DNA of 64,000 bases from Escherichia coli (GTDB taxonomy: Bacteria; Pseudomonadota; Gammaproteobacteria; Enterobacterales; Enterobacteriaceae). Of the stretch, positions 12,001 through 15,000 are shown piece after piece; positions within the stretch are counted from its first letter, which is position 1; each line of letters opens with the position of its first letter. The stretch lies in the NCBI RefSeq assembly GCF_045037415.1, contig NZ_CP173438.1; one strand, written 5' to 3'. A program made the position numbers.

Positions 12001-15000
12001 AAGCGTAATTCAGGTCAATGTCACAATTAACCATTGTCACAATAAGGTTGAACGGATATTCTGAGCACGGACCACGTAATATTCAATACATTATTTGCTG
12101 CCGGGTTTTTCGTGAATCAACGTAATATGTCAATAATTAATTCCACGCCAGTGCGTGTTATTGCCATTGTAGGATGTGATGGTTCAGGTAAATCGACCCT
12201 CACGGCAAGCCTGGTAAATGAACTGGCAGCAACAATGCCAACAGAACACATTTATCTCGGGCAATCGTCCGGGCGAATTGGCGAATGGATTTCACAGCTC
12301 CCTGTTATTGGCGCACCTTTTGGGCGTTATCTGCGAAGTAAAGCGGCACATGTGCACGAAAAGCCCTCCACACCGCCTGGCAATATGACTGCGCTGGTTA
12401 TCTATCTGCTTTCCTGCTGGCGGGCGTATAAGTTTCGCAAAATGTTGTGTAAAAGCCAGCAAGGCTATCTGCTCATCACCGACCGCTACCCGCAGGTTGA
12501 AGTGCCGGGTTTTCGCTTTGATGGCCCGCAATTGGCAAAAACCACGGGCGGTAACGGTTGGATAAAAATGTTAAGGCAGCGCGAGCTGAAGCTGTACCAA
12601 TGGATGGCATCTTATTTGCCCGTATTGTTGATTCGTCTTGGCATTGATGAACAAACCGCGTTTGCGCGTAAACCTGACCACCAACTGGCGGCGTTACAGG
12701 AAAAAATCGCCGTTACGCCGCAACTGACATTTAATGGCGCCAGGATCCTTGAACTGGATGGTCGGCAACCAGCCGATGAAATTCTGCAAGCGTCACTACG
12801 CGCAATTCAAGCTGCGCTTTCCTGATCACCAAAATGGATAGGGGATGATTTAACGAATGGACGCACTACAAACACAAACTGTTAATAGTACAACCGCGCC
12901 GCAGCCCAACTACATTCCGGGGCTGATTGCGGTGGTCGGGTGTGATGGCACCGGTAAATCCACACTGACCACCGACCTCGTGAAATCGCTGCAACAACAC
13001 TGGCAAACCGAGCGGCGCTATCTGGGGCTGCTCTCGGGCGAAGACGGCGACAAAATCAAACGATTGCCGTTGGTTGGCGTCTGGCTCGAAAGGCGACTGG
13101 CGGCCAAATCATCGAAAACCCAAAGCATGAAAACCCAAAGCATGAAAACCAAATCTCCAGCGCTATGGGCGGCGGTGATTATGTACTGCTTCTCGCTGCG
13201 AAGAATGGCGAATCTACGCAAGGTTCAGCGACTGGCGCAAAGTGGCGTTCTGGTGGTCAGCGATCGCTTCCCGCAGGCTGAAATTTCGGGCTTTTATTAT
13301 GACGGACCGGGGATCGGCGTCGAACGTGCGACCGGGAAAATCAGCATGTTTCTGGCGCAGCGCGAACGGCGTTTATACCAAAAAATGGCGCAATACCGTC
13401 CTGAATTAATCATTCGTTTGGGGATTGATATTGATACTGCCATCTCCCGCAAGCCTGACCATGACTATGCCGAGCTGCAGGACAAAATCGGCGTCATGTC
13501 GACGATTGGCTATAACGGCACAAAAATTCTTGAGATTGATTCCAGAGCGCCCTACAGCGAAGTGCTGGAACAGGCACAGAAGGCGGTTTCTCTGGTTGCC
13601 ATCGTTTCTGACCGCCGAAGTTTAACTTAAGGCTGGCGGGATACTTTTTACTATCAACGATAAGGTCAGGCTGAATTGGCGGGTTTTAACATCAAACATT
13701 GGTTTGCAGATGGCGCGTTTCGCACCATTATTCGCAATAGCGCCTGGTTAGGCTCCAGTAATGTCGTGAGCGCTTTACTGGGTCTGTTGGCGCTCTCGTG
13801 TGCCGGTAAAGGGATGACGCCCGCCATGTTTGGCGTACTGGTGATTGTACAATCGTACGCCAAGTCGATCAGCGATTTTATTAAGTTTCAGATATGGCAG
13901 CTGGTGGTTCAGTACGGAACACCAGCATTAACCAACAATAATCCGCAGCAATTCCGCAATGTCGTCTCATTTTCCTTCTCGCTGGATATCGTCAGCGGCG
14001 CGGTGGCGATTGTCGGCGGCATTGCCTTACTCCCTTTTCTTTCCCATTCATTAGGTCTGGATGACCAAAGCTTTTGGCTGGCAGCGCTGTATTGCACGCT
14101 CATTCCTTCAATGGCTTCCTCCACGCCGACCGGCATTCTGCGTGCGGTAGATCGCTTCGATCTAATTGCTGTACAGCAAGCGACGAAACCTTTTCTGCGC
14201 GCAGCGGGGAGCGTCGTAGCCTGGTATTTTGACTTTGGTTTTGCGGGTTTTGTTATTGCCTGGTACGTGTCGAATCTGGTTGGCGGCACCATGTACTGGT
14301 GGTTTGCCGCGCGCGAATTACGCCGCAGAAATATCCATAACGCCTTCAAATTGAATCTGTTTGAGTCTGCCCGACACATTAAAGGCGCGTGGAGTTTTGT
14401 CTGGTCAACCAACATTGCCCACTCCATCTGGTCGGCGCGTAACTCGTGCAGCACAGTGCTGGTGGGGATCGTGTTAGGACCCGCTGCCGCCGGGTTATTT
14501 AAAATCGCCATGACATTCTTCGACGCCGCCGGAACGCCAGCGGGTTTACTGGGCAAAAGTTTTTACCCAGAGGTGATGCGTTTAGATCCGCGCACCACCA
14601 GACCGTGGTTGTTAGGCGTGAAGTCAGGTTTACTGGCGGGCGGAATTGGTATTCTGGTGGCGCTCGCGGTGTTGATCGTCGGCAAGCCGCTTATTTCGCT
14701 GGTGTTTGGCGTTAAGTATCTCGAAGCGTATGACCTGATTCAGGTGATGCTGGGCGCAATTGTGATTTCGATGCTGGGCTTCCCACAGGAGTCATTGCTA
14801 TTGATGGCGGGAAAACAGCGCGCTTTTCTCGTGGCGCAAACCATCGCCTCAATCGGCTACATCGTATTGCTGTTCATGTTCTGTCATCTGTTTGGCGTGC
14901 TGGGAGCAGCGTTTGCTTATTTCGGTGGGCAATGTCTGGATGTGGTGCTCTCGTTAATTCCGACCTTAAAGGCATTTTTTCAGCGCCATTCCTTGCTTTA

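Follow-up and report, generated by a model that had tools for sequence, protein, structure and literature searches.

Copy-number variation of an in-frame 15-bp tandem repeat in Escherichia coli yghR

The stretch of Escherichia coli DNA analyzed here, 64 kb in length and called the window below, contains the gene yghR. Its open reading frame aligns end-to-end with the K-12 MG1655 gene located between yghS and yghQ (95.2% identity including a 15-bp gap, with 22 mismatches), and yghR is the RefSeq name of the orthologous gene in many other genomes. The window yghR and the surrounding 6.7 kb are 100% identical to strain 4/1-1. The gene and the elements of its internal repeat are as follows.

12857-13630, plus strand: yghR coding sequence, two-unit allele, 774 bp and 257 aa (759 bp and 252 aa in K-12)
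13115-13129, plus strand: repeat unit 1 in codon register, AAAACCCAAAGCATG, read as AAA ACC CAA AGC ATG (K T Q S M), residues 87-91
13130-13144, plus strand: repeat unit 2 in codon register, identical to unit 1, KTQSM at residues 92-96
13144-13153, plus strand: degenerate partial third copy, GAAAACCAAA, 90% over 10 nt, at the start of K T K S P
13159, plus strand: site of a C-to-T SNP in codon 101 (TCT CCA); counted from gene position 301 of the two-unit allele, the coordinate would be 13157

A repeat finder reports GAAAACCCAAAGCAT twice as a perfect tandem, at 13114-13128 and 13129-13143. Across the site, the window reads tcatc, followed by GAAAACCCAAAGCAT and GAAAACCCAAAGCAT again, and then GAAAACCAAATCTCC. 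The first-pass annotation had described a 15-bp in-frame tandem duplication at 13117-13146, which is the same array set 3 bases too far to the right. Its description of the array is otherwise borne out, as two exact copies lie inside the yghR ORF, the ORF translation encodes KTQSM twice (AAKSSKTQSMKTQSMKTKSPALW across the array, also given as LAAKSSKTQSMKTQSMKTKSPALWAAV), and a degenerate partial copy lies on the 3' side. Unit 2 is the one missing from K-12 and most E. coli. The partial third copy is already present in one-unit alleles and is the source of a downstream GAAAACC microhomology. Tandem Repeats Finder (TRF) delimits the array as 13104-13150 with a period of 15, 3.1 copies and a score of 78, the higher of just two tandem repeats with a TRF score of at least 50 in the window. 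The other, at 25807-25848, has a period of 21, 2.0 copies, 81% matches and the consensus ACGCTGGATCGCGACGCGCTG. No further exact copy of the yghR 15-mer exists in the 64-kb window, and the single match with three mismatches elsewhere is at chance level. By simple arithmetic, chance alone would produce an exact 15-nt tandem duplication about 6e-5 times per window (64000 x 4^-15). The C-to-T SNP replaces Pro with Ser (KSPALW to KSSALW), and the window carries the C. This SNP marks a two-unit sublineage and served as a haplotype marker in counting how often the copy number changed independently.

An intact gene cluster occupies window positions 13676-24230 on the 3' side of yghR. In K-12, the cluster was lost by an IS5-associated deletion that left yghQ truncated. 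The gene names below are those given by RefSeq to the near-identical locus of M1/5.

13676-15025: yghQ, full-length, MOP-flippase-like, 449 aa
15025-15849: hypothetical protein, 274 aa
about 15858-16421: YtfJ-family protein
16452-17522: LptF paralogue
about 17519-18598: LptG paralogue
18633-19805, minus strand: serine palmitoyltransferase, spt
within 13676-24230, listed between spt and the epimerase: acyl carrier protein
20085-20999, minus strand: NAD-dependent epimerase/dehydratase
20996-22744, minus strand: fatty acyl-AMP ligase
23088-24230: yghO

RefSeq annotates frameshifted pseudogenes in individual strains, namely yghT in IAI39 (8391-9082 of contig L010), the 274-aa hypothetical protein gene in AR_0013 (12154-12979 of contig L009) and yghO in A1.S1.18 (contig L012), suggesting that constraint on the cluster is relaxed in some lineages.

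YghR is predicted to be a P-loop protein with a thymidylate-kinase-like fold. It shares with thymidylate kinases a matching fold, the P-loop GxDGxGKS and a DRF motif that follows strand 3. In an AlphaFold2 model built from an alignment of 23 sequences (mean pLDDT 71.8), the best Foldseek matches in the PDB are all thymidylate kinases, with a probability of 1.00, E-values of about 1e-6 and TM-scores of about 0.5-0.6. A sequence search of solved structures returned only marginal thymidylate-kinase and generic P-loop matches. On the other hand, YghR differs from thymidylate kinases in having an additional conserved loop, which is the KTQSM segment, and a long helix, and in its sequence scores, which reach neither of the curated dTMP kinase family cut-offs (26.2 bits against 27 for Pfam Thymidylate_kin PF02223, and 31.2 bits against 83.25 for TIGR00041). 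The E. coli paralogues yghR, yghS and yghT are 34-41% identical and adjoin the lipid-type gene cluster. Because of the sub-cut-off scores, the additional loop and helix and these neighbours, the RefSeq label 'dTMP kinase' on the YghR paralogues is unlikely to describe their true function. The adjacency of a sphingolipid-type lipid cluster to three thymidylate-kinase-like paralogues hints that the substrate of the YghR/S/T 'kinases' is a lipid or sugar intermediate and not dTMP. Of seven papers in the searchable literature that mention yghR, none deals with the role of the protein or with the repeat, and no yghR phenotype is described there.

The AlphaFold2 model places the doubled KTQSM (residues 87-96) within a coil at 83-98, inside a stretch with pLDDT below 50 (79-98). 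The coil joins the helix at 73-82 to the long helix at 99-128 and lies upstream of the DRF-bearing strand. The segment had been called a basic linker on first reading, which undersells it. The model does assign the segment to a loop of low confidence that joins two helices, but it is not a free spacer, as its sequence and length are conserved across 21 orthologues. These orthologues, which are 66-77% identical, align over LAAKS-KTQSM-xxKxPALWAA with no length variation; K92, Q94, M96 and P101 are invariant, and every non-E. coli orthologue in the alignment has exactly one unit. The set consists of database matches, some of them named Pseudocitrobacter, Erwinia, Shimwellia, Citrobacter, Sodalis, Pantoea, Serratia and Kosakonia. 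The paralogues YghS (41%) and YghT (34%) differ in sequence at the KTQSM segment and both keep the proline that follows it; the segment has the one-unit length in YghS and is 3 residues shorter in YghT. Thus, the segment is a conserved, probably mobile, functional loop. Since KTQSM is conserved across genera, what the second unit repeats is a conserved motif and not the filler of a free spacer, and additional copies are evidently tolerated.

The number of units was counted in 5,426 complete E. coli genomes. A yghR match was obtained in 4,624 of them, and 4,611 have at least 80% of the gene. Alleles with two or more units were detected with a diagnostic 39-mer (TCG, two units and AAAACC). The longest uninterrupted match of a one-unit allele to this 39-mer is at most 24 bases, too short for the 28-base seed of the search. 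The 39-mer is found in 441 of the 5,426 genomes, with 100% identity in all cases. The diagnostic sequence occurs at 446 places, one of them on a plasmid-typed record; as yghR is chromosomal elsewhere, this replicon has probably been mislabelled or is chimeric. A 145-nt flanked three-unit construct, for which at least 99% identity means three units and the 80-90% band means two units with a 15-nt gap, resolved the 441 genomes into 436 with two units and five with three; none falls in the 90-95% band corresponding to four units. The five three-unit genomes are 2017_APHA (pig, UK), p11A, p11B and 998 (all Houston) and OW849064 (Madrid). By subtraction, about 4,170 complete genomes, including K-12, have one unit. 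K-12 and APEC E14033 both have a 759-bp yghR with one unit, and the window and strain 4/1-1 a 774-bp gene with two. A search of the complete genomes with a zero-unit DNA construct gave band counts of 879 (about 441 + 439), leaving essentially no room for a zero-unit allele; in this search, two-piece joins from two-unit genomes outrank other matches.

The range was extended by an exact look-up of YghR proteins among about 15 billion sequences. The numbers of contigs, which are capped at 1000 and include redundant and clonal assemblies, are given for four protein backbones.

Window backbone (KSPALW): zero units, absent; one, at least 1000; two, at least 1000; three, 106; four, 2; five, absent
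Pro-to-Ser backbone (KSSALW): zero units, absent; one, 13; two, at least 1000; three, 11; four, absent
JJ1886-type backbone (K-12-type C-terminal half, Q171/E188/K211): zero units, absent; one, at least 1000 (the K-12 protein itself); two, 870; three, 131 (P0020); four and five, absent
Q171-only backbone: zero units, absent; one, at least 1000; two, 10; three, absent

Zero-unit proteins were thus found on none of the four backbones and five-unit proteins on neither of the two for which they were looked up (window and JJ1886-type). For the lack of zero-unit alleles, this protein look-up is firmer evidence than the DNA construct. The DNA of the four-unit allele is present in a 4.98-Mb assembly contig and a metagenome scaffold, both with four perfect units in a gene otherwise equal to that of the window. 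Alleles with one, two, three and four units are 759, 774, 789 and 804 bp long, respectively, that is, exact 15-bp steps between otherwise colinear flanks. The expectation that copy number varies between strains is therefore correct, with one unit in most genomes, two in 436, three in five and a four-unit allele in further public assemblies. That no zero-unit allele turned up fits KTQSM being a conserved functional loop. A 162-aa fragment deposited as Xanthomonas fragariae (P0023, WP_386271394.1) clusters with the three-unit E. coli YghR and appears to result from contamination of the assembly with E. coli DNA. We found no description of the yghR repeat polymorphism in the searchable literature.

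The two-unit form appears mostly to mark an ST131-type lineage. Of the 441 complete genomes with two or more units, 390 are at least 99% identical to the window over the entire gene, and these include records named as ST131, such as EC958 and several 'O25b:H4-ST131' entries. Nearly all two-unit complete genomes have a haplotype found in ST131-named records (EC958 and JJ1886); the ST131 assignment of about 435 of them is based on record names and the shared haplotype. A further 45 two-unit complete genomes, including JJ1886 and JJ1887, have a mosaic yghR. In JJ1886 (3001-3774 of contig L015 aligned with 12857-13630 of the window), the gene resembles K-12 at gene positions 6, 18 and 459-647, and the part from 123 to 447, with the repeat in it, is of the window type. 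The alignment shows that homologous recombination has reshuffled yghR and indicates short recombination imports into this region in JJ1886-type ST131 genomes, so that this mosaic reflects recombination around an inherited duplication and not a new one. An independent duplication on a K-12 protein backbone had been considered for these two-unit proteins and was rejected, as the JJ1886 sequence is an ST131 mosaic allele.

A one-unit version of the window allele, 100% identical to it in the rest of the gene, occurs in 15 complete genomes; therefore, the duplication occurred on exactly that allele with no other change. The one-unit strains IAI39, AR_0013, M15 and S1-ISR-02-A have about 120-129 mismatches to the window over 20.7 kb. 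M1/5 and A1.S1.18, also with one unit, have 1-2 mismatches over the same 20.7 kb in addition to the 15-bp gap, and are either ancestral one-unit relatives or revertants.

Comparison of copy numbers across haplotypes reveals repeated changes, including several gains of independent origin and what is probably a loss, so that the site is not invariant within E. coli. Three-unit alleles are present on the window haplotype (2017_APHA, p11A/B and 998), on the Pro-to-Ser haplotype (OW849064, which has the C-to-T SNP in common with the two-unit genome EcPF40) and on the JJ1886-type mosaic haplotype (P0020). Because these are three different haplotypes, at least three separate gains from two to three units are implied, unless recombination moved the repeat core. 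A one-unit Pro-to-Ser allele (contigs L024-L026) has 6.7-kb flanks identical to the window. Hence all four combinations of Pro or Ser with one or two units exist, and one of the two characters must have changed twice. A contraction of the repeat is a far more likely explanation than an identical point mutation arising twice.

The first duplication also seems to have occurred more than once. The unrelated blood isolate AHB29 (OZ547246.1) and contig L021 have two units together with K-12/APEC bases at gene positions 235 and 255, the latter just 4 bp upstream of the repeat, and their flanks are 97.2% identical to the window over 16.7 kb. Judging by these bases and flanks, the unit was duplicated independently in AHB29/L021. 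AHB29 is the sole such case among the 436 two-unit complete genomes.

The array has the properties of a variable-number tandem repeat (VNTR): head-to-tail units, allelic steps of whole units and homoplasy. We consider it very probable that yghR contains an in-frame, minisatellite-type coding VNTR, that its units change in number by slipped-strand mispairing, and that the two-unit allele is common by way of the ST131-type clone. The anatomy of the array, its copy-number spectrum and its recurrence on different haplotypes are what we observed; slippage as the cause is what we infer from them. The ancestral state would have been a single unit with a 7-bp direct repeat, GAAAACC, at 15-bp spacing, and one-unit alleles indeed contain GAAAACC twice, exactly 15 bp apart, in tcGAAAACCcaaagcatGAAAACCaaatct. 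Mispairing of the two GAAAACC copies during replication would, on rare occasions, duplicate precisely the observed unit. This first step appears rare because we see two origins in about 4,600 complete genomes. Once two perfect 15-bp units are present, gain and loss of whole units should become easier, producing the one-, two-, three- and four-unit alleles; such whole-unit changes after a first duplication match textbook slipped-strand behaviour. Non-modal alleles amount to about 1-2% of ST131-type complete genomes. The two-unit allele probably arose in or just before the ST131-type lineage and spread by the expansion of that clone, in which case its frequency would reflect hitch-hiking of a nearly neutral variant. 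Each unit would add one KTQSM to a conserved, probably flexible loop, and as the frame is always kept, the outcome would be a length polymorphism and not an on/off switch. Given the conservation of the motif in orthologues, an additional unit may not be neutral.

Selection of the additional KTQSM in the ST131-type lineage, where the doubled conserved loop would tune YghR activity or partner binding, is unlikely to be the explanation. The conservation of KTQSM and its flanks in sequence and length among 21 orthologues at about 70% identity, the lack of zero-unit alleles and the near-fixation of the two-unit allele on the ST131-type haplotype all speak for selection. However, clonal expansion alone accounts for the allele frequency, and the same haplotype family gains units (three and four) and loses one (back to a single unit) with no obvious bar. 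M1/5 and A1.S1.18 do with one unit despite being nearly identical to the window over 20.7 kb, and the searchable literature reports no yghR phenotype. A more specific form of this proposal has the KTQSM loop as a functional element, for example a substrate- or membrane-facing one, of a kinase serving the adjacent spt/acyl-carrier/LptFG-like lipid cluster. On this view, a second copy of the motif in the ST131-type lineage would alter activity or specificity and add a lineage-specific envelope phenotype, with the three- and four-unit and the one-unit derivatives as continuing tuning. We regard this as a long shot.

It is also improbable that a single historical duplication was merely spread and reshuffled by homologous recombination at a site that is not especially mutable. 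The K-12-like tracts around an ST131-like core in the JJ1886-type yghR speak for this scenario, as do two-unit alleles with window-type bases beside the repeat on several divergent flanks (contigs L018-L020 and L022). Since the JJ1886 yghR is mosaic, some combinations of haplotype and copy number could indeed result from recombination instead of new slippage. Nevertheless, recombination has no power to create the three- and four-unit alleles, which are present on three haplotypes, and in AHB29/L021 a breakpoint would need to fall within the 4 bp between the non-window base and the repeat. Finally, a phase-variable contingency locus or a sequencing or assembly artefact can hardly be entertained: phase variation does work on tandem repeats, and assembly errors are known to include short indels in repeats, but the 15-bp unit is five codons, so every allele encodes a full-length, in-frame protein of 252-267 aa with no shift of frame or promoter spacing and no switching off; the tract is short (one to four units) and rarely changes, with five of the 441 genomes departing from two units and non-modal alleles at about 1-2% of ST131-type complete genomes; and identical alleles that track haplotypes recur in hundreds of independent complete assemblies.

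The yghR repeat polymorphism has two modest uses. First, the two-unit allele is a 15-bp size difference that is almost confined to the ST131-type haplotype among complete genomes and may serve as a lineage marker, one that is neither perfectly specific (AHB29) nor perfectly sensitive (the one-, three- and four-unit derivatives). Second, the alleles form a natural series in which a conserved loop motif is present one, two, three or four times and is never absent, providing ready variants for the study of YghR, YghS and YghT.

The yghR array may be compared with two known kinds of repeat. Phase-variable contingency loci are simple-sequence repeats in genes of Haemophilus or Neisseria. The yghR array resembles them in that repeat-mediated slippage alters the number of units within a gene, but differs in having few units of 15 bp that never lose the frame and no on/off switching. 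MLVA typing of enterobacteria makes use of in-frame coding VNTRs such as the 6-bp STTR5 repeat in Salmonella yohM. Like these, the yghR array consists of perfect head-to-tail units with a length that is a multiple of three, strains differ by whole units, recurrent changes are attributed to slipped-strand mispairing, and the repeat is usable as a lineage marker. Unlike them, it has a very low copy number (one to four) and low diversity, with one allele prevailing in the species and another in a single clone, and the motif doubled by its unit is elsewhere conserved from genus to genus. The yghR repeat is most likely a routine slippage polymorphism, a kind of feature that is entirely familiar.
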